Shown here in pieces: positions 380 through 17,300 of a DNA stretch of 21,018 bases (position 1 is its first letter; every line of letters begins with the position of its first letter). Location of the stretch: contig JALTCQ010000111.1 of assembly GCA_027074515.1 (NCBI GenBank), forward strand, positions 1-21,018, given 5' to 3'. This DNA is from Candidatus Micrarchaeota archaeon. Its GTDB lineage: Archaea; Iainarchaeota; Iainarchaeia; JAADDC01. The notes under the pieces were generated by a model that worked only from the letters and a program-made list of their open reading frames with translations, was not told the origin of the DNA and ran no database searches. The position numbers and the translations under genes are program-made.

Positions 380-2851
380 TCACTGAATTTTGTAGACCAT
401 CACGCCGTGGTGCGGCGCCACCCACGCGAGCCGGAAGTGCTCCATGGGCACGTCAAGAAGCATCCTCACAATCATGCTGTTGTTCATCCCAGGAGCAAGA
501 AGGATGAGCGTTCCACCCTTCTGGGATTCAGAAAGCTTGTACACTGCGTACTCCCTGTTACCAATGCGTATACGCGTGGCCTCATTAAACTCGCGGTAAT
601 ACTGCGGCTCAAACGGCGGTATGTCAGCCCATTGCTTGGCACTAAGTGTGGCAAGTGTGCTGCCGTTCTGCAGGCATATATAGTATGGTTTCCCCGTCAC
701 TATGGATTTGCCCACGCGCTCACAGTAGATCTTCCCTGCAGCGTAGTTTGCCAGGCGGGGGTCACGAAGATCACTGGTCTGCAGGGCGTAAAGCGCCAGA
801 GAATAACCCTGCCAGAGGAACTCCGGCTGGAAGATCACGTAGTTCATGTGGCGTTTGGAGGCAATAGCGTAGGCTGCGTTCTCGTCAGGGGCGAGGAAGA
901 ATTGCGCTGCCTCCACGTCTGCTTGGTAGTAGTAGTTCGTGTTATCTGTCATAACGCCACGGCCTGTGAAGAACGTGAGCCAGTGGCCTATACTCCACCA
1001 ATCGAGGAGATTCGCATCCTTTGGAGTGTTGGCGTCAATCCACTTGAACATGTCGATATAATCCTGCCCAGACGCTGCTGAGAATAGCGGTAGCCCCTTT
1101 GGTGCAAGGTTCATTTCCTGCGCCTCTGCAGACGTTAGGAGCATTGGAATCCGCGTGGCAGTGTGGTACACGGCCGTGGAAATCATTGAAATGGAAACGA
1201 GGGCAATAACTGCCATGATTGCTGCTCTCGCAGGCTTGGAAGACCCCCGCGTATAAAGATCGGCAAGAACAACCGCGCTAGCAATCGCTATGGGCAAACC
1301 TAGGTAGTAACAGAATTTTAACTGGTACCACGCGGCCCACCACGTTAGTGCAAGCCAGGCGAGCAAGAACAGAAAGTACCTATTCTTCTCGGAGCGGTAG
1401 AACATGAAAGGAATAGATGTTAGAACAATGAGGGCAAGTATCCCATACTTCGCGGGCCAGTTCGCGAAACCATACGTCTCCTCCCCAATAATTGCCGAGC
1501 CAATACCGTCCGTCTTCGGTTCGATGAAGCCCATATGTGGTTTGAGAACCGCGCTGTGTACGCCAACACCCTTACTCATCTCAGGGAAGAAGTTCCACTG
1601 AATGGTGTTGATAACGGGCTGGTACCAATTGTTTCCGTTTATTGGGCCTGAAAGCACGGCAAACAATAGAGGGACGTATATCACGCCAAGAAGCTTCCAA
1701 TCGATAATTCCACGCATGTCTTTACGCTTCTCAAAGAGGATTGTTGCTAATCCTCCCGCAAGGCCAGAGACCAGTATCATCAGGAGGGATCCGAGGAATA
1801 ACATGGAGAAGCTCGTGCTTTGGAACCCAATGCGGCGGGCAACTCCGTTAGAGTCCGTTATCTCCGTAATAAACCCGTTGTTCGCCGGGCCCATGTATGT
1901 GAGGATTGCGAAGACGACTGCACCCAGTGTCACGTATATGTATTTCCTCTCGTCCGTGTGGAGCCAAAGGATCGCCGCAGCAGTGGCCACACCGAAGAAA
2001 AATATCGCTATGTATGGCGTGGCAAGCGTGAAGATCGTAGTAGGAGTGAGCGCACCAGTAAGCGCGAGTGCATCTGCGGCCTCGGAGTACGCCAGCGTCT
2101 TTACGAATATGCCGGCGATAACGGCGAAGACACCGCCAAGGCCGATAACGGCCCAGTCCCACCATGAAACGTGATCAGGAACGTACCTGCGAATGTAGTC
2201 CAGAATAACGTATGCAAGGTAGAGTACAGTGAATACGAAGACTGTGTACGGAACGATGAAGAACCCGTCCCACGAGATCGCCTGGATAAGAAGCGTAATG
2301 CCAGCGAGAATCGTGTAGATCCAATACCACTTTCTATCCTTGCTGCGGTAGGCAAGATACGCAAAGATAAACGCAAGAGGTATGAAGAAAGAGGTCGCGT
2401 CATCTTCATAGAAGCCGGATAGCGTACGGTAGATGTATCCTGGGTTCGTGGCGGCGAAGAAGCCCGTAAGCAGCCCAAGCAAGGGCCCGCCGAGCACGTA
2501 GCCAAAGATCCCCATAATTAGAGATCCTGTCGCGCCGAAGCTAGCCGGGAGCCACTTAAACACCATCAGCATGTTCTGCTGGATGTAATGCGCGCCATAA
2601 ACGAGATGGTATACCCACGCAGGGAAATCCATGGATAGCTCCCAATCAATGGGGACTGGAGGGAAGCCACGGAACGCAACCGGATCGTATTTTGGCAGAT
2701 GCCCCATCTGGACAATGTACGATGCCATCCTTGCGAACCAATAAGAGTCAAAGCCAAAGATGTACGTATACTTCTCGAGATAGATGCGCGTTGCAAGCCC
2801 GAGAATGAATATCATTGTAAGCCCAAGAACCAAGCGCTCCCAGCTCTTCAT
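380..2851 (-). CDS. aglB: Oligosaccharyltransferase AglB (STT3 family), polytopic membrane protein, 823 aa
   Basis: The N-terminal two thirds contain many TM helices. STT3-like motifs appear in the expected order: FGFDSYWFAR (first acidic loop), GFYEDDATSFF, SWDGFF, then DWWSIGHWLTFFTGRGVMTDNTNYY aligning to WWDYGYxIxxxxxRxxxxDNNTW. A soluble C-terminal domain follows. Confidence 0.8.
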   Translation of the reverse strand: MKSWERLVLGLTMIFILGLATRIYLEKYTYIFGFDSYWFARMASYIVQMGHLPKYDPVAFRGFPPVPIDWELSMDFPAWVYHLVYGAHYIQQNMLMVFKWLPASFGATGSLIMGIFGYVLGGPLLGLLTGFFAATNPGYIYRTLSGFYEDDATSFFIPLAFIFAYLAYRSKDRKWYWIYTILAGITLLIQAISWDGFFIVPYTVFVFTVLYLAYVILDYIRRYVPDHVSWWDWAVIGLGGVFAVIAGIFVKTLAYSEAADALALTGALTPTTIFTLATPYIAIFFFGVATAAAILWLHTDERKYIYVTLGAVVFAILTYMGPANNGFITEITDSNGVARRIGFQSTSFSMLFLGSLLMILVSGLAGGLATILFEKRKDMRGIIDWKLLGVIYVPLLFAVLSGPINGNNWYQPVINTIQWNFFPEMSKGVGVHSAVLKPHMGFIEPKTDGIGSAIIGEETYGFANWPAKYGILALIVLTSIPFMFYRSEKNRYFLFLLAWLALTWWAAWYQLKFCYYLGLPIAIASAVVLADLYTRGSSKPARAAIMAVIALVSISMISTAVYHTATRIPMLLTSAEAQEMNLAPKGLPLFSAASGQDYIDMFKWIDANTPKDANLLDWWSIGHWLTFFTGRGVMTDNTNYYYQADVEAAQFFLAPDENAAYAIASKRHMNYVIFQPEFLWQGYSLALYALQTSDLRDPRLANYAAGKIYCERVGKSIVTGKPYYICLQNGSTLATLSAKQWADIPPFEPQYYREFNEATRIRIGNREYAVYKLSESQKGGTLILLAPGMNNSMIVRMLLDVPMEHFRLAWVAPHHGVMVYKIQ

Positions 2852-2872
2852 GGTATCATCGGGCCAGGAAGT

Positions 2873-2880
2873 GTTTTAAA
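2873..2880 (-). promoter_or_regulatory. TATA-like box for aglB (leaderless spacing)
   Basis: The minus strand reads ctttaaaa, centred about 26 nt upstream of the aglB ATG (2851-2849). Confidence 0.45.
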
Positions 2881-2968
2881 GTTCTGTATGAATATTGGTA
2901 TGTTCCTTGATCGGAGGCGCTGCGCACTGGCTATGCCAGGCGCACTGGGACGGGGTCCCAGCTGACGC

Positions 2969-2998
2969 GGGTCTGGTCTTCCGACCAGACACACAATG
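2969..2998 (+). repeat. 30-nt hairpin unit, copy A (upstream of tRNA-Leu CAG)
   Basis: Sequence gg GTCTGGTC ttcc GACCAGAC acacaatg: perfect 8-bp stem, 4-nt loop, conserved 3' tail cacaatg. Confidence 0.85.
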
Positions 2999-3003
2999 GT
3001 GGC

Positions 3004-3009
3004 ATAATT
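3004..3009 (+). promoter_or_regulatory. Possible TATA element for tRNA-Leu(CAG)
   Basis: ataatt is the only A/T-rich patch in the GC-rich leader and lies about 50 nt before tRNA position 1. It is identical in the second locus. If it is the promoter, the transcribed leader would be about 25 nt. Confidence 0.25.
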
Positions 3010-3056
3010 GGGGATCGTAGATCCCCAGTTAGCTCCGCGTCAACCGAGGATCGGTT

Positions 3057-3140
3057 GCGGGGGTGCCCGAGTGGCCAAAGGGGCCGGATTCAGGGTCCGG
3101 TGGCTTAGTGCCTTCCTGGGTTCGAATCCCAGCCCCCGCA
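3057..3140 (+). tRNA. tRNA-Leu (anticodon CAG), type II with long variable arm, no intron, CCA not encoded
   Basis: Manual cloverleaf: acceptor GCGGGGG/CCCCCGC + A73; D arm with GAGTGGCCAAAG loop; anticodon stem CCGGA/TCCGG with loop TT-CAG-GG; variable arm TGGCTTAGTGCCTTC; T arm CTGGG-TTCGAAT-CCCAG. Confidence 0.95.
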
Positions 3141-3167
3141 TCAGCCGATACGCGGCTGGCGAGCCGC

Positions 3168-3197
3168 GGGTCTGGTCTTCCGACCAGACGCACAATG
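3168..3197 (+). repeat. 30-nt hairpin unit, copy B (downstream of tRNA-Leu CAG)
   Basis: Sequence gg GTCTGGTC ttcc GACCAGAC gcacaatg, in direct repeat with copy A 199 nt upstream. The preceding cgc is also shared (cgcgggtctgg). Confidence 0.85.
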
Positions 3198-3243
3198 TGC
3201 TGCCATGCGCAGCACGCAGGGGTACAGGGGGCGCAGCCCCTTT

Positions 3244-3300
3244 GCCGATACGCGGCTGGCGATCCGCGAGGCCGGTTGCAAGCAACCGACCACACGAAGG
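3244..3300 (+). repeat. Diverged third trailer module (locus 1 only)
   Basis: gccgatacgcggctggcga at 3244-3262 repeats 3144-3162 exactly, 100 nt downstream. It is followed by a different hairpin (CGGTTG caag CAACCG) and a cgaccacacgaagg tail resembling cgaccagacgcacaatg. Confidence 0.5.
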
Positions 3301-3451
3301 GCCGTTGTATGTGGTCCGCAGGGGCGCTATTCGCCCACAGCTTCGTTATGTTCTACGACCTGCTGAGCGAAGCGAACGCAGGGCAAGCGCGGCCAGAGTA
3401 GCTGGCCATCTCGGCCCTGCACTACTTTTCCTGTGTTTCATGCAAGATTCC

Positions 3452-3459
3452 TTTTAAAT
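3452..3459 (+). promoter_or_regulatory. TATA-like box upstream of trpS
   Basis: ttttaaat lies about 40 nt before the GTG start at 3499. A GGTGAGG Shine-Dalgarno-like motif sits at 3482-3488. Confidence 0.4.
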
Positions 3460-3498
3460 CCACTTATCCCCTCCTTCTTGCGGTGAGGCAGATGGCAG

Positions 3499-4653
3499 GT
3501 GAAGGTCTTTGGCGATGATTTCGTTGTGACGCCCTGGGAAGTTGAGGGCGAGATCGATTACAACAAGCTTCTGGAGTACTTCGGTGTGGATAGAATCACA
3601 GGCGAGATGATCGAAGAGGTTAGGCGTCTTGTGGGGGACGTGCACCCATTCCTGCGCCGCCAGATCTTCTACGCGCACAGGGATTTTGACAAGGCCTTGA
3701 AGGAGTACGCTTCTGGCCAGAAGTTCTTCCTCTACACGGGCATTGCCCCGTCCAAGGGCCCCATGCACTTTGGACACTTAGTTCCCTTCCTCTTCACGCG
3801 GTGGATGCAGAAGGCCTTTGACGTAAACCTCTACATCATGGTCCCGGATGAAGAGAAGTACCTCGCCAAAAAGGTGGACTCGCTCAAGGACGTGGACGAA
3901 CGCGTCCGAGCGGTGGAGAGAATCATCGCGTCCCTGGGCTTTGACCCGGACAAGACCTTCCTCTTCAGGGACAGGGAGTACATCAAGCATCTCTATGACG
4001 CAGCAGTGGTGGTTGCCCGGAGGATAAACTACTCCGTTGCTAAGGCGGTTTTCGGCTTTGGAAGCGACACGAGTATCGGGCTTGTCTTCTACCCGGCGCT
4101 CCAGATCGTCCCGACGCTCTTTGAGAAGAACCGACCGGTAATACCGTGCGCCATCGACCAGGACCCCTACTGGAGGATACAGAGGGACATCGCGGAGAAG
4201 ATCGGCCATAAGAAGACCTCTACCGTTCTCTCCAAGTTCATGCCGGGGCTGGACGGCCCAACAGGGAAGATGAGCGCCAGCAAGCCTGAATCCACGATCT
4301 TCGTAACGGACGACGAGAAAACGGTCAAGAAGAAGATCATGAACGCCTTTACCGGTGGTCAGCCCACGGTCAAGGAGCAGAGGGAGAAGGGAGGAAATCC
4401 AGAGATCTGTTCCGTCTACAAGTGGCACACCCTGTTCACAGAGGACGACAAGGAGCTCGCAGAGATCTACCACGACTGCAAGGCAGGCAAGCTCATGTGT
4501 GGCGAGTGCAAGCTGCGCCTGTTGAAGAAAGTCCAGGGCGTTCTGGACGAGATCCACGAGAAAGAGAAGCACGCGGAGAAGAACTTGGAAAAGATAAAGT
4601 ACGATGGAAAGCTAGCGTCCCAGATGTGGGAGTGGGAGTTCGAGTACGAGTAA
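3499..4653 (+). CDS. trpS: Tryptophanyl-tRNA synthetase, archaeal/eukaryotic type, 384 aa (GTG start)
   Basis: VTPWEVEGEIDYNKLLEYFG N-terminal signature; YTGIAPSKGPMHFGHLVPFLFTRWMQKAFDVNLYIMVPDEEKYL (HIGH region closely resembling eukaryotic/archaeal TrpRS); KMSASKP (KMSKS). Confidence 0.9.
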   Translation: MKVFGDDFVVTPWEVEGEIDYNKLLEYFGVDRITGEMIEEVRRLVGDVHPFLRRQIFYAHRDFDKALKEYASGQKFFLYTGIAPSKGPMHFGHLVPFLFTRWMQKAFDVNLYIMVPDEEKYLAKKVDSLKDVDERVRAVERIIASLGFDPDKTFLFRDREYIKHLYDAAVVVARRINYSVAKAVFGFGSDTSIGLVFYPALQIVPTLFEKNRPVIPCAIDQDPYWRIQRDIAEKIGHKKTSTVLSKFMPGLDGPTGKMSASKPESTIFVTDDEKTVKKKIMNAFTGGQPTVKEQREKGGNPEICSVYKWHTLFTEDDKELAEIYHDCKAGKLMCGECKLRLLKKVQGVLDEIHEKEKHAEKNLEKIKYDGKLASQMWEWEFEYE

Positions 4654-4755: not shown

Positions 4756-6204
4756 ATGGAATCAGAGCGGATTGCTCGCTCTCTTTCAGAGCTGGAACGG
4801 AAGGTTATCAAACACGTGGATTCTAAGAAACCGGTTGCAGAAATAGCCAGAGCAGCAGGGCTTTCTGAAGTAGAGGCCATGCGTGGCCTGCAATATCTCT
4901 CCAACAAGGGCGTTGTCCGCCTCGTGCGCGAGGAGAAGGAACGTATTGTCCACACGGAGAAGGGAAGAGAGTACGTGGGTAAAGAACTGCCAGAGAGACG
5001 AATCCTGAATGCCCTGAAAGATGGATCGAAGAAGATTGACGAGCTTCCCGTGACGAAGGAGGAGTTCTCTGGCGTCATAGGTATTCTGAAGAAGGCGGGG
5101 CTTGTTCGCTTCGAAAAGGGTGTTCTCGCAATCACTGAGAAGGGAAAGTCCTTTATCTTCCCGTGGGAGAACTGTTATGATCGTCTGGACTGCCTAAATG
5201 ATGAAACGTACAAAATACTCAACCGTCGCGGTCTTGTTACCAAGGAGAAAAGCGTTGTTTGGTACGCTGAGCCCACGGAGCTCTGGGAGGATGTTTTGCC
5301 ACACGTGCGCGAGGATCTGATCGACAAGATCACCCCAGAGATCCTTCGGAGCGGTTCTTGGAAGGATAAGGAGTTCAGGCACTACGACGTGGTGTCACCC
5401 ATTCCCAAGAATTATTACGGGAAAAGACAGCCGTATTACGAGTTCCTCCGAAGGGTAAAGGACAGATTGTACGCCCTTGGTTTCCAGGAGGAGGAACCGG
5501 GCGAAATAGTCCTTCCGATGTTCTGGAACTCCAACGCCCTCTTCATGCCGCAGGACCACCCTGCAGCGGATATTCACGACATATACTTCGTTGCTGCGCC
5601 AAAGAAATATGGCTCAATTCCCGAAGAGCTAGTGGAAAAGGTGCGCAAGATCCACGAGCGTTCCTGGGGCTACAAGTGGTCCGACGAGAAGGCAAAGCGA
5701 CTTGTGCTTCGATCGCATGCCACAGCACTCTCTGCGTTCCTCCTGGCGAGCAAGCCGAAGATCCCTGGCAAGTACTTCACGATTTCAAGGGTGTTCCGCC
5801 CAGATGAGTTTGATTACAAGCACCTACTCGAGTTCAACCAGCTGGACGGCGTGGTCCTGTCAGAAGACATCACGTTCCGCGATCTTTTGGGGCTATTAAA
5901 GGATTTTGCCCGCGAGTTCGCAGGGACGGATAAAGTAAAGTTCAAGGCAGGCTACTTCCCCTTCACCGAGCCATCCGTGGAGCTCTTCGTCAAGCACCCG
6001 GAGAAGGGGTGGATAGAGATTGGCGGTGCAGGCATGTTCAGGGAAGAGCTCCTAGAACCCTTCGAAATAAACGTGCCCGTCATCGCCTGGGGCTTGGGGA
6101 TAGGAAGATTCGCCATGATGGAGTTAGGCATCCAGGATATCCGTGAGTTCTACTCCAAGCGGCTCGGCTATCTAAGGAGTGCCAAGAAGATCTGGAGGGT
6201 ATGA
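4756..6204 (+). CDS. pheS: Phenylalanyl-tRNA synthetase alpha subunit (archaeal type), 482 aa
   Basis: N-terminal winged-helix-like repeats, then a class II core with FRPDEFDYKHLLEFNQLDGVV (motif 2) and GAGMFREELL...AWGLGIGRFAM (motif 3). I chose ATG 4756 rather than the TTG at 4678 because of the TATA spacing and the MESERIARSLSELERKV start. Confidence 0.9.
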   Translation: MESERIARSLSELERKVIKHVDSKKPVAEIARAAGLSEVEAMRGLQYLSNKGVVRLVREEKERIVHTEKGREYVGKELPERRILNALKDGSKKIDELPVTKEEFSGVIGILKKAGLVRFEKGVLAITEKGKSFIFPWENCYDRLDCLNDETYKILNRRGLVTKEKSVVWYAEPTELWEDVLPHVREDLIDKITPEILRSGSWKDKEFRHYDVVSPIPKNYYGKRQPYYEFLRRVKDRLYALGFQEEEPGEIVLPMFWNSNALFMPQDHPAADIHDIYFVAAPKKYGSIPEELVEKVRKIHERSWGYKWSDEKAKRLVLRSHATALSAFLLASKPKIPGKYFTISRVFRPDEFDYKHLLEFNQLDGVVLSEDITFRDLLGLLKDFAREFAGTDKVKFKAGYFPFTEPSVELFVKHPEKGWIEIGGAGMFREELLEPFEINVPVIAWGLGIGRFAMMELGIQDIREFYSKRLGYLRSAKKIWRV

Positions 6205-6205
6205 C

Positions 6206-7867
6206 ATGCCGAAGTATGACGTTCGACAATCAGATCTCGAGCACCTCGTGGGAAAGAAGTTCACGCTTGAAGAGATTGAGAACATCCTCTTTGACCTGAA
6301 GGCGGAACTGGACGACTACGAGGATGGGATTATAACTGTGGACTACTCGGACACGAACAGGCCAGATGTGTGGTCCGTGGAGGGACTTGCACGGGAGATG
6401 AGGGGGTATTTGGGCATTGAAACGGGTCTGCCAAGGTACGAACTAACACCATCAGGCGCCGAAGTGCACGTGGATCCCTCCGTGGGCAAAGTGCGACCCT
6501 TCGTCGCAGCAGCCATCGTCAAGGACGTAAACCTGGGCGTGCCTGGCTACGAGCAGCTCATACAGCTCCAGGACAAGATCATGCTCACGTATGGGAGAAA
6601 AAGGAAGCGCGTGGCCATAGGAACGCACAACGCTGACCTCATACACTTCCCCGCAAGGTACACAACGGCAAAACCCGATGCAATATCCTTCGTACCACTC
6701 TGGGAATCCCGCGAGATGACCCTGCGCGAGGTACTCGAGTACCACGAAAAGGGCAGGGAATACACCCACTTGCTGGAGGGTCTTGAACGCTATCCCGTGC
6801 TGCTCGACGCGGAGGACAGGGTAATTTCCTTCCCGCCGATCATAAACTCCAACGATATCGGCAACATTGGGCCTGAAACGAAGAACATCTTCATCGACGT
6901 GACGGGAACGGACGAGAAAGCGGTTCTTACCGCGCTCAACGCAGTGGTAGCAGCCCTTGCTGAGAGAGGGGGGAGGATAGAGTCTGTGAAGGTTGTGTAC
7001 CCTGACCGCGTGGTAGAAGCACCAGATCTCTCTCCAAAGGAGTTCATCATTTCCAAAGCATATGCCGAGCGCGTTTCGGGGTTGAGATTCACAGACGACG
7101 AGTTCAGAAAGCTCCTTGAGCGGGCGAGGTACAGCGTGAAATCGGTGGATGGGGACAAGTGGACCGTCATATACCCGGCATACCGCGCAGACATCATGCA
7201 CCAGCGCGACATGGTTGAAGACATCATCATCGCATACGGATATAATCGCGTCGAGCCAAAGAAGCCAGCCTTCTTCACCCGCGGCGGCGCATCGGAGTAC
7301 ACGAAGCTGGAGGATGCGGTAAAGGAGCTTCTCATCGGTGCCAGTGCCCAAGAGATTGCAACATTCATCCTCACGTCCCGTTCAGTCGTCGAAAGAGCAA
7401 AGCACATCCCCGTTGTCGTCCTCCAGAACCCAATGACGGAAACATTTTCCTTAGTCCGTCCGGCACTTCTGCCCACAGTTCTTGACGTCCTCTCGGCGAA
7501 CACGGGAGAGGAGTATCCCCAGAAGGTGTTTGAGGTGGGAGACGTTGTTGTCTCCAGCGAATCCAGCCCCACGGGAACGAGAACTGAGCAGCACGTCTGC
7601 TACGCCTTGGCAGCATCTGAGGCTACATACACGGATGCCCGCCAGGTCTTGGAGTTCTTGCTGGATCAGTTGGGTGTTAACTACCGCTTAAAGGAGTCAG
7701 ACAAGCCGTGGTACGTCTCTGGACGCTCTGCCGACGTGGTTGTCGGCGGAGAGGTCATAGGGCACATTGGTGAGGTTCATCCCGAAGTCCTCGAGTCCTT
7801 TGGGATTGGGATGCCCGTTGTTGCCTTCGAAATTTCTCTTTCAAAGGTCCTGGGGGCGCTCAAGTGA
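6206..7867 (+). CDS. pheT: Phenylalanyl-tRNA synthetase beta subunit (archaeal type), 553 aa
   Basis: MPKYDVRQSDLEHLVGKKFTLEEIE start typical of archaeal PheT, with B3/4- and B5-like regions. ATG 6206 lies 1 nt after the pheS TGA, with GGAGGG at 6194-6199. Confidence 0.9.
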   Translation: MPKYDVRQSDLEHLVGKKFTLEEIENILFDLKAELDDYEDGIITVDYSDTNRPDVWSVEGLAREMRGYLGIETGLPRYELTPSGAEVHVDPSVGKVRPFVAAAIVKDVNLGVPGYEQLIQLQDKIMLTYGRKRKRVAIGTHNADLIHFPARYTTAKPDAISFVPLWESREMTLREVLEYHEKGREYTHLLEGLERYPVLLDAEDRVISFPPIINSNDIGNIGPETKNIFIDVTGTDEKAVLTALNAVVAALAERGGRIESVKVVYPDRVVEAPDLSPKEFIISKAYAERVSGLRFTDDEFRKLLERARYSVKSVDGDKWTVIYPAYRADIMHQRDMVEDIIIAYGYNRVEPKKPAFFTRGGASEYTKLEDAVKELLIGASAQEIATFILTSRSVVERAKHIPVVVLQNPMTETFSLVRPALLPTVLDVLSANTGEEYPQKVFEVGDVVVSSESSPTGTRTEQHVCYALAASEATYTDARQVLEFLLDQLGVNYRLKESDKPWYVSGRSADVVVGGEVIGHIGEVHPEVLESFGIGMPVVAFEISLSKVLGALK

Positions 7868-9166: not shown

Positions 9167-10066
9167 TCACTCCACCCCGTAGAGAGAAACGATCTCCTGC
9201 CAGTCCCTCTCGCGCTTGCGCTTCCAGAATGGGCCCTTGCGCACGGAGGGCCAGCCCTCCTCGTATGACATCCTGTCTTCGCTCACGTAGAATACGCCTG
9301 TGGGCACCCCCGCATCCGGGTTCAAATCGTAGTTCCACTCGCGTGCCCGCTTCAGCGCTGCCTCGAAGTTCCTTGGGTCGTGGCCATCCTCCTCCAAGCG
9401 GTATACGTGCTCGCGGAAGTACTGTGTGGTGTCGTGGAAGGAAACACAGGGCTGGAGCACTTCAACGAGGGAGAACCCCTTGTGTTTTATGGCTGCCTTG
9501 AGGGTTTCCTTAAGGTGTGCCACGTCGTAGGCGAACTCGCGTGCCACAAAGGTTGCTCCTGCCTCCAGTGTGAGTGCTATCGGGTTCAAGGGTTCCTCGA
9601 AGGTGCCCAATGGCGTGCTCTTGCCCTTGAAGCCGTGCTCCGTGGTCGCGGTTGCCTGCCCTGTGGTCAATGCGAAGACCTGGTTGTTGTGGAGGACCAC
9701 TGTGATGTCCGAGTTGTAGCGAGCCGCGTGGATGAGGTGTGAGATCCCTTCGTTGAGGAGACCTCCGTCACCACCATAGGCAATGACCTTTAGCTCAGGG
9801 TTGGCCAGCTTGATGCCCACGGCCGGAGGAATCGTTCTTCCGTGAAGCCCGTAGAAGCCATTGACGTTGATGTAGTCGTAGATCTTGGCACCACAGCCGA
9901 TGTCCGCAGTTATCACGAAGTCCTTGCGCTGGGCAAAGCCTTCATTTATTAGTTCAGCTATGGCCATCTTGCTGGCCGTGAGGATCCCAAAGTTACCACA
10001 TCCCGGGCACCAGGTGATTGGTGCCGGCGTGTTCAGGTCGTTTGGAGTCATGGCACACATTTTCAC
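9167..10066 (-). CDS. 2-oxoacid:ferredoxin oxidoreductase, beta (TPP-binding) subunit, 299 aa
   Basis: WCPGCGNFGIL, DIGCG, YGGDGGLLNEG (TPP-binding GDG motif). The start overlaps the alpha stop by 4 nt. Confidence 0.85.
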   Translation of the reverse strand: MKMCAMTPNDLNTPAPITWCPGCGNFGILTASKMAIAELINEGFAQRKDFVITADIGCGAKIYDYINVNGFYGLHGRTIPPAVGIKLANPELKVIAYGGDGGLLNEGISHLIHAARYNSDITVVLHNNQVFALTTGQATATTEHGFKGKSTPLGTFEEPLNPIALTLEAGATFVAREFAYDVAHLKETLKAAIKHKGFSLVEVLQPCVSFHDTTQYFREHVYRLEEDGHDPRNFEAALKRAREWNYDLNPDAGVPTGVFYVSEDRMSYEEGWPSVRKGPFWKRKRERDWQEIVSLYGVE

Positions 10067-11703
10067 AACCTCCTTATGATGTATTCAGGTGTTAGAGGCC
10101 TCGCGTCGTAGCGGAGGACCCTCTCATCGATCATGATGCCCGTCTTCTCCGCTATGATCTGGCCGAGGAGTCCTGTAACGTCGTTCTCCACGAGGACGAT
10201 CCGCTCGGCGTCCTTGACTGCATCCTTGAACTGATCCACAGGGAAGGGTTCAACATATGATACCTGAACGAACTTCCAACCCTTCAGCCGTTTTATTGCA
10301 TCCATGATCGCGCCCTTGGTGCTCCCCCATGAAACGATCACGTTGTTCCCTTCTCCGTAGACGCTCACGGGTTCCAGGCGTGCAATCTCCTCTGCCATGT
10401 ATTTAACCTTTCTGAAGCGCTTGTCGTTCATCTTTATGGCCCACTCGCCCTCTTCCCTCGTGTATCCGTACTCGTCGTGCTCGTAGGACGTTGCTCGGAC
10501 GGGAACGTCTGCCTGGCCAGGAACAGCGCGCGGAGAGACGCCAGTCTCCGTTATCTCGTAGCTCTTGTAGTCAGAAGGAACAACGTCGATGATGTTCCTG
10601 CTGGGATTCACGCGCGGGGAGAACTCATCGATGGTATACGTAGATTCTGCAAGGTGCTTGTCAGAGACGATGATGGAAAGCACCCTGTACTTGTATGCCA
10701 GGTAGAACGCCTCGATGGTCCTCTCAAACGCCTCCCTGGGGTCTCCAGGGGCGACGACCACCTTAGGATACTCCCCGTGACCTATGTTCACCGCCATCTT
10801 TAGGTCGCCCTGGCCAGTATAGGTCGGAATGCCCGTGGAGGGAGCATTCCTCATGGCAAGGTATGCGACCAAAGGTACTTCACTCATGCCCTGCATGCTC
10901 ATAGCTTCTCCCATGAGGGCAAAACCGCCGCCAGACGTCCCGATCATGGTCATGGCTCCGGCGTAGGACGCACCGAGGGCAGCGTTTGCCACGGCAATTT
11001 CGTTCTCCAGCTGTATGGCTTGGTAGTCATACTTCGTCTGGAGGGCAGCGAGGTAGTGGAGCACGGGCGTTGCTGGGGTCATGGGATATGCGATGTATAG
11101 ATCCAGGCCCGATGCAATGGCACCAAGAGCTACTGCCTGGCTCCCAGAGATGAAGTAGCGGGGCTTTCTTTCAGGGTGCTCGTCAATGGCATGCCCAGCG
11201 TCCACTGCGTCGTATCCTTTCCTTGCCGCTTTCACAGCTGCTTCATTGCCCTTCAGTTCCTCTCTAATCGTCTTCTCCAGGGACTCAAAGGGCATTCCAA
11301 AGTACTTCCACGCTGCGGCGATAAGTATGGTGTTCTCCATGATGCGTGGGACGTTGAGCTCCTTGATTATGGCATCCGTGTCCACTGAAATCTTTTTCTC
11401 CGCGTTGACGCGGTTTGGAGCGAAGATCACCGCGTTGTCCTTCATCTCTGCAGCATGCTTAACAACCGTGTCGTCGTTCAGCGCGATCACAATGTCATGA
11501 CCCTCAAACTCGTGGGACATTATGGGCTCGTCCGAAATCGCCAAAACGTTGAAGTTATGGCCCCCTCTTATGAGCGAGGGGTAGTCCCTGTAGTTAAAAA
11601 CGTAAAACCCCTCACGAACAAAGGCCTTTCCAAGAATCTCTGCGGCCTTGGCAATACCTTGGCCGGCCTCTCCTCCTATGAGTATCTGGCGGTACATGCT
11701 CAT
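10063..11703 (-). CDS. 2-oxoacid:ferredoxin oxidoreductase, alpha subunit (gamma-alpha fusion), 546 aa
   Basis: N-terminal gamma-type domain (ILIGGEAGQGIAKAAEILGKAF...RGGHNFNVLAISDEPI), followed by an alpha domain (FISGSQAVALGAIASGLDLYIAYPMTPATPVLHYLA). The start could instead be the third codon (ATG 11697), judging by TATA spacing. Confidence 0.85.
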   Translation of the reverse strand: MSMYRQILIGGEAGQGIAKAAEILGKAFVREGFYVFNYRDYPSLIRGGHNFNVLAISDEPIMSHEFEGHDIVIALNDDTVVKHAAEMKDNAVIFAPNRVNAEKKISVDTDAIIKELNVPRIMENTILIAAAWKYFGMPFESLEKTIREELKGNEAAVKAARKGYDAVDAGHAIDEHPERKPRYFISGSQAVALGAIASGLDLYIAYPMTPATPVLHYLAALQTKYDYQAIQLENEIAVANAALGASYAGAMTMIGTSGGGFALMGEAMSMQGMSEVPLVAYLAMRNAPSTGIPTYTGQGDLKMAVNIGHGEYPKVVVAPGDPREAFERTIEAFYLAYKYRVLSIIVSDKHLAESTYTIDEFSPRVNPSRNIIDVVPSDYKSYEITETGVSPRAVPGQADVPVRATSYEHDEYGYTREEGEWAIKMNDKRFRKVKYMAEEIARLEPVSVYGEGNNVIVSWGSTKGAIMDAIKRLKGWKFVQVSYVEPFPVDQFKDAVKDAERIVLVENDVTGLLGQIIAEKTGIMIDERVLRYDARPLTPEYIIRRL

Positions 11704-11717
11704 ATAACGCTGTTAAG

Positions 11718-11725
11718 GTTTAAAT
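11718..11725 (-). promoter_or_regulatory. TATA-like box for the oxidoreductase-gpmA operon
   Basis: The minus strand reads atttaaac, 19-26 nt upstream of the two candidate ATGs (11703, 11697). Confidence 0.35.
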
Positions 11726-11738
11726 GCGAGGTGGTGCG

Positions 11739-11746
11739 TTATAAAG
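11739..11746 (+). promoter_or_regulatory. TATA-like box for the orphan membrane protein (leaderless spacing)
   Basis: ttataaag is centred about 26 nt upstream of ATG 11767, in a divergent arrangement with the oxidoreductase promoter. Confidence 0.45.
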
Positions 11747-11766
11747 GGCGACTACATTTTTACATC

Positions 11767-12927
11767 ATGGCTGAGAACAACAGGCACTTCGACGTTCTCG
11801 GGTTGATATTGGTCCTCCTCGGCCTGGCATACGCTGGTTTCGCCATATACTGGGGTGCGAATACAGAATGGAGCCCGCACACGGATTATTACGTGCAGCA
11901 GATACTAAACCACAACGGAAAATACATCGCAACGTTCGAGACACAAGCCGGATCGGTAGGAATCGTGGATCTGAAGGGAAGGTATGCATACGTCAAGGTA
12001 GACAGTGATGGGCTGATTAACGCAGCATACCTGCTCCCGGAGATGAACCTTGTTGGAGTGGCGAGAAAAGACAGCTACACATACCTGTTATCAGTATCCG
12101 GAAAGCACGCGTCCATATTTCGAATAGGAAGCGCGGGAATGGATCGCTTCGACTATAACCTAGATCTCTGGACCTTGCGCAGCACATCACGTGTACAGAT
12201 TTCAGATTCACCAGTGTTTTACGTGCCAGGAACGTGGAGGAACCACTACGGCGTGCTACGGCTCGATTTTTCCGAAATAAACAACCCCGTGGCGCGAGTA
12301 TTCTACGATGTGCCGACATCGGATTTCATAAGAGATGGAGACAGCATATATTTCCAAAGTCCACAGGGCCGCCTTCACGAGCTAGCAATCCGCGGAAAAA
12401 CTGCCACGGATTACAGAATACTGATCACGGGATCCCCGCTATCCGCAAGGGATGGGATCGTTGCGGTACAGTCAGAAAAGGGAGTAGGTTACGTGGAGAT
12501 CAATGGGAATACCGCCAACGCCATAATCCTTGACGGCACGAAGGGAAATGCAGTAGTAACGGACTTCGGCACGTTCATATCGGATAACGGTAAGTTCTAC
12601 GCAGTTACGGGGCATGATAAAAACAGCCTGCGCGTGCTCGTGGCAGATTTCCCCTTCGAACCATACAGCTACATACAAGGCACCGCGGAGTACGAGATCC
12701 TCGGCACGTACGCAGCAGATCCAGCATACATCCACGGCACCTTCGACTTCCCCCACTGCCCCCAGAACTTCGTAGCGATAGATGCAAACGTGACGTTCAT
12801 AACTGCCCCTGTGGAGAGAGTTTCAAGCGTTAGAGGCGTGCTAACACCCATAAACTACGAGGGCAACACTTCTGTGGCTCTAACGCCTGCAAAGCTCAGC
12901 GTGGACTTCCCGTGTTACAGCCCATAG
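11767..12927 (+). CDS. Hypothetical membrane-anchored protein with a beta-rich ectodomain, 386 aa
   Basis: MAENNRHFDVLGLILVLLGLAYAGFAIYWG forms a single N-terminal TM/signal anchor. The remainder is rich in G/S/T/Y/V short-strand patterns. I recognise no family motif. ATG 11767 was chosen because upstream ORF sequence overlaps the oxidoreductase alpha gene and the TATA box fits. Confidence 0.6.
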   Translation: MAENNRHFDVLGLILVLLGLAYAGFAIYWGANTEWSPHTDYYVQQILNHNGKYIATFETQAGSVGIVDLKGRYAYVKVDSDGLINAAYLLPEMNLVGVARKDSYTYLLSVSGKHASIFRIGSAGMDRFDYNLDLWTLRSTSRVQISDSPVFYVPGTWRNHYGVLRLDFSEINNPVARVFYDVPTSDFIRDGDSIYFQSPQGRLHELAIRGKTATDYRILITGSPLSARDGIVAVQSEKGVGYVEINGNTANAIILDGTKGNAVVTDFGTFISDNGKFYAVTGHDKNSLRVLVADFPFEPYSYIQGTAEYEILGTYAADPAYIHGTFDFPHCPQNFVAIDANVTFITAPVERVSSVRGVLTPINYEGNTSVALTPAKLSVDFPCYSP

Positions 12928-16893: not shown

Positions 16894-16990
16894 GAAGGTG
16901 GTGCCATTGTAACCAGATTTCCGTGGATACTAACCGCAAACGTTGACGTGAAGCAACCACATATGCCCCTGCGTGCTGCGCATGGCAGCA

Positions 16991-17020
16991 CATTGTGCGT
17001 CTGGTCGGAAGACCAGACCC
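16991..17020 (-). repeat. 30-nt hairpin unit, copy D (downstream of tRNA-Leu CAA)
   Basis: The minus strand reads gg GTCTGGTC ttcc GACCAGAC gcacaatg, identical to copy B. Confidence 0.85.
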
Positions 17021-17047
17021 GCGGCTCGCTGGCCGCGTATCGGCTGA

Positions 17048-17131
17048 TGCGGGGGCGGGGATTCGAACCCCGGAAGGCACTAAGCCAGCGGATCTTGAGT
17101 CCGCCCCCTTTGGCCGCTCGGGCACCCCCGC
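17048..17131 (-). tRNA. tRNA-Leu (anticodon CAA), type II, no intron, CCA not encoded
   Basis: Reverse complement: GCGGGGGTGCCCGAGCGGCCAAAGGGGGCGGACTCAAGATCCGCTGGCTTAGTGCCTTCCGGGGTTCGAATCCCCGCCCCCGCA. Anticodon stem GCGGA/TCCGC with loop CT-CAA-GA; long variable arm; T arm CGGGG-TTCGAAT-CCCCG. Confidence 0.95.
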
Positions 17132-17189
17132 AACCGATCCTCGGTTGACGCGGAGCTAACTGGGGATCCACGATCCCCAATTATGCCCC

Positions 17190-17219
17190 CATTGTGCGTC
17201 TGGTCGGAAGACCAGACCC
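17190..17219 (-). repeat. 30-nt hairpin unit, copy C (upstream of tRNA-Leu CAA)
   Basis: The minus strand reads gg GTCTGGTC ttcc GACCAGAC gcacaatg, 199 nt from copy D. Confidence 0.85.
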
Positions 17220-17300
17220 TCGTCAGCGCCGGCCGATGTTCGGCCGAGCGTCAACCGATGTAGCTGCCAAGGCCTGCGCGTAATACCAATGCAAGGGAAG

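Follow-up and report, generated by a model that had tools for sequence, protein, structure and literature searches.

A lineage-specific family of hairpin modules beside the tRNA genes of uncultured archaea

A 30-nt hairpin unit that flanks the two tRNA-Leu genes in a 21,018-nt stretch of DNA from Candidatus Micrarchaeota archaeon (contig JALTCQ010000111.1 of assembly GCA_027074515.1, the whole stretch being called the window hereafter) is one allele, named H1, of a lineage-specific family of modules of around 45 nt, each composed of CGCGG, a stem-loop of 8-10 bp and an RCACA(A) tail. The family is confined to a narrow uncultured archaeal lineage, and it is structured and unexpectedly conserved. 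We tentatively favor, with somewhat less than even confidence, that these modules are tRNA-precursor hairpins that would act on RNA within long mosaic leaders and trailers.

The four copies of GGTCTGGTCttccGACCAGAC reported in the window by a first-pass annotation of this DNA were confirmed at their positions, against a chance expectation of 0. The 21-mer GGTCTGGTCTTCCGACCAGAC has exactly four matches, at 2970-2990 and 3169-3189 on the forward strand and at 16999-17019 and 17198-17218 on the reverse strand, without any extra match in the window when up to three mismatches are allowed, and its expected count is 0.00 (100 dinucleotide shuffles). The full repeat is actually 33 nt long (CGCGGG, the hairpin and RCACAATG), in such a way that the copies of locus 1 span 2966-2998 and 3165-3197, with a spacing of 199 nt and one mismatch, and those on the reverse strand span 16991-17023 and 17190-17222. 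A stem of eight perfect pairs with a TTCC loop, identical in the four copies, the presence of one copy 5' and one copy 3' of each tRNA-Leu, both in the orientation of the tRNA, and the lack of a T-run after these copies had also been described, and all three held, a terminator scan giving 0 sites in 2700-3600. The 33-nt repeats have no sequence in common with the tRNA, from which they are separated by 58 nt on the upstream side and by 24 nt on the downstream side. A fifth, variant module was found in locus 1 at 3265-3296, sharing the flanks and the ACAC tail of the others, with a different stem (GGCCGGTTGC/GCAACCGACC), and preceded by the second copy of a 21-nt sequence, prefix B (GCCGATACGCGGCTGGCGA).

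The two tRNA-Leu loci form a single 271-nt inverted repeat (2961-3231 versus 16957-17227, 93% identity), with around 4 differences in the 90 nt of the leader, 2 in the approximately 83 nt of the trailer, and 8-9 in the tRNA. As the flanks differ less than the tRNA bodies do and the whole locus is duplicated, the four copies represent one arrangement that was copied or homogenized, and the four H1 copies are not four independent events.

Relatives were reached through the neighboring TrpRS and glycosyltransferase genes, which yielded tRNA loci of the same clade (designated below by L numbers), and a covariance model, R1, was searched on both strands of around 300 kb of clade contigs. This search gave 21 distinct copies, five of them outside the training set, and all 21 were found no further than about 300 nt from a tRNA and co-oriented with it, at positions ranging from 280 nt upstream to 146 nt downstream, with 13 of them downstream of the nearest tRNA. 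Seven tRNAs are flanked by the family (Leu-CAG, Leu-CAA, Pro, Ser, Trp, Asn and His). The dispersal over unrelated intergenic sites that would make of the hairpin a generic genome repeat was not seen, since every family copy in these 300 kb adjoins a tRNA. A filter-free R1 search of the window detected five copies only, with scores of 42-54 bits on the sense strand versus 8 bits on the antisense strand.

In the 15 module copies that could be readily aligned, the single-stranded CGCGG and RCACA(A) are kept, as are the first and last pairs of the stem, and the inner stem varies, giving the alleles GTCTGGTC, GTGCGGC, GTGGGATC, GTGGGGC and GGCCGGTTGC; a further stem allele of the family is GGCCGGCTGC. 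Pairing is found in 89.9% of the cells of the 8-bp structure, compared to 22-40% when the 3' partner is slid, changes on both sides are seen in six of the eight stem pairs, and none of 500 shuffles matched the observed covariation score. The apical TCTTCGA of H1 and H4 resembles the TTCGA of the T-loop, which is no more than suggestive of an origin from a T arm.

Among 185,579 species-representative genomes, the exact hairpin was found in one other metagenome-assembled genome (MAG), at two loci, where the H1 30-mer follows tRNA-Pro(GGG) by 26 nt and tRNA-Ser(CGA) by 22 nt; at the latter, prefix B is present and a second unit carries the H2 stem followed by TTTTT. An exact-pattern scan of the JGI metagenomes returned only the two loci of that same MAG. 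As the 30-mer also stands after tRNA-Pro and tRNA-Ser, the hairpin is not specific for tRNA-Leu, and its initial description as a tRNA-Leu element was mistaken, the family being present at seven tRNA species. The patterns of H1, H2 and prefix B had no match in 2.9 million viral contigs, Rfam searches of the flanks at E values up to 10 produced only tRNA and noise, and our literature searches returned no earlier account of tRNA-flanking hairpin repeats in archaea.

The leader and the trailer in which the modules are embedded consist almost wholly of hairpins (folding z-scores of -6.4 and -4.0). The features of the two loci are the following.

2922-2943, forward strand: leader hairpin hpA, GCGCaCTGGC tat GCCAGGCGC, from folding.
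2945-2961, forward strand: leader hairpin hpB, CTGGGAC ggg GTCCCAG, from folding.
2966-2998, forward strand: H1 module copy 1, in the leader of tRNA-Leu-CAG, CGCGG G GTCTGGTC ttcc GACCAGAC ACACAATG; R1 score of 52.4 bits sense versus 8.2 bits antisense.
3005-3031, forward strand: leader hairpin hpD, TAATTGGGGATC gta GATCCCCAGTTA, from folding.
3041-3057, forward strand: leader hairpin hpE, CAACCGA gga TCGGTTG, from folding; its last G is G1 of the tRNA.
3057-3140, forward strand: tRNA-Leu (CAG), CCA not encoded; Rfam 52.2 bits, ARAGORN 3056-3142.
3144-3167, forward strand: trailer-proximal prefix B, GCCGATAC plus the small hairpin GCGGCT ggcg AGCCGC.
3165-3197, forward strand: H1 module copy 2, in the trailer of tRNA-Leu-CAG.
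3244-3264, forward strand: second prefix B.
3265-3296, forward strand: H2 module, CGCGA GGCCGGTTGC aa GCAACCGACC ACACG; R1 score of 41.9 bits.
3368-3392, forward strand: CCTGCTGAGCGAAGCGAACGCAGGG module, at the right end of the approximately 280-nt trailer array.
3391-3407, forward strand: hairpin GGCCAG agtag CTGGCC.
3408-3421, forward strand: putative degenerate fragment similar to the tRNA-Leu 3' end, ATCTCGGCCCTGCA, too degenerate for BLAST.
3422-3431, forward strand: array end CTACTTTTCC, matching the sequence directly 3' of tRNA-Leu in L006 and L005 (CCCCCGCA, then CTACCTTTCC).
17190-17222, reverse strand: H1 module copy 3, in the leader of tRNA-Leu-CAA, with the prefix CGAGGG.
17048-17131, reverse strand: tRNA-Leu (CAA); ARAGORN 17046-17132 and alignment with locus 1.
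16991-17044, reverse strand: prefix B and H1 module copy 4, in the trailer of tRNA-Leu-CAA.

These elements recur in the relatives in other combinations. Stems at the position of hpA are fully compensated (CCGAC/GTCGG in L006, CTGAC/GTCAG in L020 and CTGCTC/GAGCAG in L025), the sequence of hpD and hpE is also found within the long leader array of L006, and hpE-like hairpins are present in the trailers of L002 and L020 with no tRNA following them. Prefix B with the module of 3165-3197 also stands after tRNA-Ser in L002 and after tRNA-Leu in L020, and the H2 allele is also found in L002, L005, L006 and L020, with a compensated variant in L026. Another recurring module, CCTGCTGAGCG...GCAGGG (CCTGCTGAG..GCAGGG), is present at 3368-3392 of the window and in the trailers of L025, L020, L027 and L023; it has tandem G-A motifs and comes after the T-rich tract in several trailers.

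The corresponding tRNA-Leu loci of the relatives are arranged as follows.

L020: true ortholog of locus 1 (AglB, then tRNA-Leu-CAG); upstream, an H2-type module; downstream, prefix B and H1 with a TTC loop, then a further allele and a T-rich tract.
L006: tRNA-Leu-CAG relative; upstream, an array of approximately 390 nt with three modules and no A/T-rich box near the tRNA; downstream, no module.
L005: tRNA-Leu-CAG relative; upstream, an intron-containing tRNA-Trp, one module and then tRNA-Leu; downstream, no module.
L018: tRNA-Leu-CAA; no H-module upstream or downstream.

Conservation of the hairpin at orthologous tRNA-Leu loci, proposed initially as a way to check its relevance, was found in part: the specific 30-mer is not fixed at these sites, but a member of the family is usually there. 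In L005, the tRNA-Trp(CCA) at 9529-9674 has a 71-nt intron and is separated from the downstream tRNA-Leu-CAG by 165 nt that contain a single module, and the pair looks like a dicistronic tRNA unit. This tRNA-Trp was missed by ARAGORN under default settings and found in its intron mode, and it matches Rfam as tRNA.

The position of the modules with respect to the putative transcription unit was deduced from module-free relatives. In window locus 2, a TATA-like sequence AATAAAAAA (17309-17301) and a CGCGCAGG motif (17280-17273) have aligned counterparts in the promoter of L018, a locus free of modules in which the motif is 25 nt from the tRNA, whereas in the window approximately 130 nt of modules, including H1, stand in between. 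Compared with L002 and L026, the tRNA-Ser locus of L025 has a 245-nt insert with H1, located downstream of ATTTTAAAC..GCTGCGCAGG, and the modules at tRNA-Asn in L012 and L023 are likewise downstream of a TATA conserved with L015. The TATA shared with module-free relatives is therefore kept upstream of the modules in three independent cases, and in two of them the GCTGCGCAGG motif is also kept. This motif was observed around 25-30 nt downstream of the TATA in several tRNA genes (window 17280-17273, L018 at about 9636-9645, and the tRNA-Ser of L002, L025 and L026), and it is probably the transcription start region of the tRNA promoters of the clade.

The first-pass annotation had pointed to a single A/T-rich, TATA-like patch, just downstream of the upstream hairpin copy, and had raised the possibility of a palindromic operator. 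This patch, CATAATT (3003-3009), is the base of the 12-bp hairpin hpD, and better TATA candidates exist further upstream, at 2874-2882 and 17309-17301. Because it is part of this 12-bp stem and recurs in L006 at about 190 nt from the tRNA, CATAATT was rejected as the main promoter. An operator through which a dimeric DNA-binding protein would control the tRNA gene would agree with the perfection of the palindrome and with the presence of one copy upstream of each tRNA-Leu, but we consider it extremely unlikely, because the half-sites lack a conserved sequence and the majority of the copies are located 3' of tRNAs. The half-sites vary among family members and among orthologous loci, with pairing alone being kept; the asymmetric flanks make the family strand-specific (52-54 versus 8 bits for the H1 copies); 13 of the 21 copies are downstream of the nearest tRNA, with positions spread over the range given above; and the upstream copies are placed downstream of the conserved promoter, not over it.

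On the 3' side, the last trailer module is followed within 0-9 nt by a T-rich tract in L002, L026, L025 and L020, and the tRNA-His trailers are similarly arranged.

L002: terminal module ACACAATCC, T-tract TTTTT.
L026: terminal module ACACAATC, T-tract TCTTTTTCT.
L025: GCACA, then TTCTTCTTACTTTAT.
L020: GCACA, then TTCTCCTCATTTCAT.
tRNA-His trailers: stem, GCACA, TTTATAC.

Judging from the positions of the promoter and of the T-tract, the H1 copies on either side of the tRNA would belong to its primary transcript. Transcription of the modules together with the tRNA, their function as RNA and the identity of the nuclease that would cut them are all predicted from the sequence.

The same tracts are the basis for a second explanation, namely that the hairpin, RCACA and the U-tract constitute a composite terminator or 3'-end signal, of which the internal and upstream copies would be spare or decayed. 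Archaeal intrinsic termination is not known to need a hairpin, and two of the four H1 copies of the window are upstream of the tRNA that they would terminate; furthermore, no T-run follows any of the four, nor the copy in L001. In its favor, besides the T-rich tracts after the terminal modules and in the tRNA-His trailers, archaeal termination depends on U-tracts together with aCPSF1 (PMC8716108). Taken together, we regard this composite signal as decidedly unlikely. A bacterial-type intrinsic terminator was rejected, with 0 scan sites in 2700-3600 and T-rich tracts present only after terminal modules elsewhere, past the RCACA.

The modules of the trailers were also compared with the genes around them. 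Between L002 and L026, the trailer module of tRNA-Ser is identical at 53 of 58 positions, with one fully compensated stem pair, whereas the identity is 67% for the GT2 gene, 82% for tsaD, 67% for the promoter region and 94% for the tRNA. Similarly, the trailer unit (prefix and module) of the window and that of L020 are identical at 51 of 55 positions, versus 81% identity for the adjacent AglB gene. The trailer-proximal module is hence 91-93% identical, compared to 67-82% for neighboring genes, and this conservation above the background could reflect either purifying selection or recent spread. Two further details concern the predicted RNA: a neighboring module keeps a GNRA tetraloop while its letters vary (GAAA, GCAA and GUAA), and in the predicted linkers CA and AC are the commonest dinucleotides, with CA at 12.6% versus 4.5% in stems.

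Of the functions proposed at the outset, a processing or stability signal on the pre-tRNA fits best, given the placement of the modules between promoter and tRNA or between tRNA and T-tract, their strand specificity and the covariation of their stems; its restriction to tRNA-Leu did not stand. The modules, together with a few other hairpin types, would be the building blocks of the long, hairpin-rich mosaic leaders and trailers of the tRNAs of this clade, transcribed together with the tRNA and acting on RNA. The stable stem would block exonucleases and keep the CA-rich tail single-stranded, and the single-stranded CACA tail may serve as the entry or cleavage site of an endonuclease, for which the beta-CASP protein aCPSF1 is a candidate. 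Cleavage of this kind would divide the long precursors into defined pieces, with RNase P and RNase Z completing the tRNA afterwards, and the last trailer module might cooperate with the downstream T-rich tract in 3'-end formation. The modules would spread by duplication and recombination. There is a copy on each side of tRNA-Leu, in this proposal, because leaders and trailers would share a single pool of modules through local duplication and recombination, and both tRNA-Leu genes have them because the 271-nt locus is an inverted duplicate that recombination would keep similar.

The candidate nuclease was chosen because aCPSF1 cuts preferentially at single-stranded CA (PMC3553952), a preference that it shares with CPSF73 in the same report. 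The metazoan histone pre-mRNA 3' stem-loop, processed by CPSF73, is thus similar in having a short stable stem-loop followed by a CA single strand, although the likeness is only in the way it would work: here the substrate is a predicted tRNA precursor, and the modules stand on both sides of the tRNA and in tandem. We know of no analogue of SLBP or U7. The more specific idea that a stem of any sequence would present CACA to aCPSF1 (FttA), as a hitherto undescribed archaeal signal parallel to animal histone mRNA 3'-end formation, is in our view quite unlikely.

Several data weigh against a role of the modules in the precursor. The 18 flanks analyzed fold equally well on both strands (mean difference of -0.9 kcal/mol, with the sense strand favored in 10 of the 18) and show no asymmetry in G-U counts, so that a test based on G-U pairs cannot separate an RNA hairpin from a DNA hairpin, and the H2 class keeps a C-A mismatch that corresponds to a G-U pair on the antisense strand. 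No modules are found downstream of tRNA-Leu-CAG in L005-L007, and they are likewise missing from the tRNA-Leu-CAA locus of L018, from the tRNA-Asn loci of L015 and L016 and from the more distant relatives L008-L011 (66% TrpRS identity); as they are not universal, they cannot be essential for tRNA maturation. In addition, alleles are swapped at orthologous sites of close strains, as in the upstream position, occupied by H1 in the window and by H2 in L020, and this looks like turnover rather than site-specific constraint. A conservation higher than that of host genes is also expected of a mobile sequence that spread recently, and the assignment of the nuclease would depend solely on the in vitro preference of an enzyme from Pyrococcus.

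Archaeal tRNA genes are usually described with short leaders and a simple T-tract terminator, unlike those of this clade, in which leaders and trailers reach 100-400 nt and are built from interchangeable covarying hairpin modules. If the modules work as RNA, they would represent a new cis-element for the processing of tRNA precursors or for 3'-end formation, and a natural substrate for the conserved and poorly understood aCPSF1.

The main alternative explanation, which we take as possible though somewhat unlikely, is that integrative elements with tRNA genes as their targets gave rise to the modules, which would be DNA remnants or miniature derivatives of such elements, tolerated within the pre-tRNA. 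Integration would duplicate one end of the tRNA, a later deletion would leave the arms of the element, and the hairpins would matter, if at all, for recombination. Some loci do show such a structure. In L027, about 145 nt appear inserted after an intact tRNA-His (an H-module, a further module and a GGCCAG-N5-CTGGCC hairpin); next come a perfect 21-nt copy of the tRNA-His 3' end and the normal trailer as in L024 and L026. In L012 and L023, a 15-nt fragment of the 5' end of tRNA-Asn keeps the original promoter and is followed by the GGCCAG hairpin, the H-module and the intact tRNA, an arrangement that mirrors pTN3-type integration, in which the rebuilt tRNA is separated from its promoter (PMC5495485). 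The window itself has at 3391-3421 the GGCCAG hairpin and the degenerate tRNA-Leu 3' fragment, followed by the ancestral downstream sequence as in L006, and therefore around 280 nt of its trailer look inserted. Also, 22 bases of the T arm and acceptor stem are identical between tRNA-Leu-CAG and tRNA-Ser-CGA, after both of which prefix B and one and the same module are found, and the presence or absence of modules varies among close strains with a cross-genome similarity above that of host genes.

Other data do not fit with such scars. Among the called genes, no integrase or other element gene adjoins any copy, and five spurious open reading frames (ORFs) of the flanks had no Pfam match at E values up to 1, so that a decayed integrase gene was not detectable in them; the three module patterns are, as said, absent from the viral contigs. 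Most copies (L001, L002, L026, L025 and window locus 2) have no detectable duplicate of a tRNA fragment. The 33-nt repeats do not overlap the tRNA and for this reason they are not attachment (att) sites, a candidate that was discarded also with no integrase domain found. Several stem alleles with conserved single-stranded flanks in one genome would be odd for a recombinase site, and the GNRA loops and the T-tracts that follow indicate RNA. Compared with the archaeal elements that target tRNAs (pTN3, TKV4 and those with SSV-type integrases), the likeness is that duplicated 5' or 3' tRNA fragments bound some of the arrays; the differences are the location of the repeats outside the tRNA, the lack of a detectable integrase gene or fragment, and inserts consisting of 80-280 nt of hairpin modules. 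Both explanations may be true, one for the origin of the modules and the other for their present role.

If the modules are insertion scars, they would constitute a record of very small tRNA-targeted insertions and would show repeated tRNA flanks driving genome inversions. With either explanation, they would account for the assembly breaks at the tRNA loci of these genomes. The independent assemblies of L024 and L027 both end in or beside the tRNA-Ser locus (in the first ~100 nt), consistent with an assembly broken by repeats.

The GGCCAG-N5-CTGGCC hairpin keeps its stem and varies its loop, and in several loci it is immediately adjacent to part of a tRNA copied there; a role as a site related to recombination is conceivable. 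Its occurrences are listed below.

Window, 3391-3407.
L027, 3480-3496.
L012, 2784-2800.
L023, approximately 7188-7204.
L018, in the trailer.

In the distant relatives L008-L011, where the hairpin modules are absent, a 19-nt copy of the 5' end of tRNA-Leu was observed about 100 nt upstream of an intact tRNA-Leu-CAA (e.g., L008 3621-3639), resembling an att site.

It had also been suggested that the hairpins are the terminal direct repeats of a tRNA-carrying cassette of roughly 230 bp. As stated, this finds no support: the duplicated unit, with a length of 271 nt, passes the downstream repeat, and the orthologs differ. In a broader form, in which recombination between direct repeats would move a tRNA plus one repeat as in an integron, the idea is consistent with repeats that are direct, placed on both sides of the tRNA and co-oriented, with a homology between the two loci that begins just 5 nt before the upstream repeat, and with units of leader hairpin, prefix B and module that are found with and without an intervening tRNA. 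We nevertheless hold it for very unlikely: the homology continues for 34 nt after the downstream repeat, a different upstream allele (L020, L006) or no downstream module (L005-L007) is seen at the orthologous tRNA-Leu loci, no recombinase gene is found nearby, no empty site or circle junction was seen, and the hairpins are far shorter than attC sites. An integron attC site (55-140 nt) was rejected on these grounds, with hairpins of around 20 nt, a tRNA or hairpins in between and no integrase. The cassette idea does touch a real pattern, as some module arrays are bounded by duplicated tRNA-end fragments and are insertion-like.

Bacterial repetitive extragenic palindromic (REP) sequences and bacterial interspersed mosaic elements (BIME) are GC-rich palindromes that, with conserved linkers, form variable mosaics in the transcribed intergenic regions at gene ends, with turnover among strains, and for which a block to 3' exonucleases and termination have been proposed as roles. 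This REP/BIME mosaic is the closest known kind for the family described here, which is also made of short palindromic units (covarying stems of 8-10 bp) and linker motifs in variable mosaics. The family departs from it in dispersal and in orientation: the copies are few and confined to tRNA flanks, with the exact hairpin at two loci in a single one of the representative genomes searched, and all of them are direct and co-oriented with the tRNA, not alternating. No transposase, whether a REP-associated tyrosine transposase (RAYT) or any other, was found among the called genes of any locus, several covarying stem alleles coexist with conserved single-stranded flanks, and the host is an archaeon.

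A repeat of around 30 nt that encloses a hairpin and has an 8-nt tail kept among copies (GCACAATG), direct within one putative transcript, also recalls CRISPR repeats processed by Cas6. However, the spacing is 100-199 nt versus 30-40 nt, the "spacers" (tRNA and hairpins) are conserved, there are 2-3 copies per locus, neighboring stems differ and the window has no cas genes; a CRISPR array was consequently rejected, with spacings of 199 and 100 nt and with the tRNA and conserved hairpins in between. A miniature inverted-repeat transposable element was also discarded, as the repeats are direct and the only inverted repeat is the 20-nt hairpin itself. Regarding guide small RNAs, the H/ACA type was discarded, since an ACA follows the stem but the stem is continuous, with a loop of 3-6 nt, no pocket and no kink-turn, and the C/D box type was rejected by eye, with a CUGA before two copies and no RUGAUGA box. 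Finally, the CCGCGU...AUCGG of the window leader is complementary to the trailer CCGAUACGCGG, whereas the ortholog L020 lacks this complementarity; the pairing does not appear in the minimum-energy folds, and no bulge-helix-bulge geometry was seen in it in the window. A leader-trailer helix of this kind is doubtful.

The arms of the 271-nt inverted repeat enclose a 13.7-kb block from trpS to fdh. This block (trpS, pheS, pheT ... serS, fdh) is inverted with respect to L018, whose gene order reads Na/H exchanger, tRNA-Leu-CAA, trpS, pheS and pheT. The endpoints of the inversion fall in the tRNA-Leu loci, though ambiguous assembly across the repeat might have contributed to this picture. In Thermococcus, chromosomal inversions with endpoints at tRNA genes have been described (PMC5495485). 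The genes of the window are archaeal (AglB/STT3, an archaeal-type TrpRS, the alpha and beta subunits of PheRS, SerRS and POR). At 11455-12927 on the forward strand there is an ORF of 490 amino acids with no Pfam match; at the syntenic site of the relatives, between the POR and thymidylate kinase genes, a gene of 386-393 amino acids, also with no Pfam match, is found.

A scan of the whole window at the Rfam gathering thresholds gave 0 matches, missing both tRNA-Leu genes, and a permissive scan scored the first of them at 52 bits; the miss appears to be a loss at the speed filter for class II tRNAs. Two other RNA features were observed in the relatives. L005 has at 5013-5035 an intergenic minihelix, GCGGGGGC taac GCCCCCGC followed by ACA, which corresponds to the acceptor-stem sequence of tRNA-Leu in a place with no tRNA, and L012 encodes at 1888-2162 the archaeal signal recognition particle RNA (Rfam RF01857, 141.5 bits), between ftsZ and the tRNA-Asn locus.

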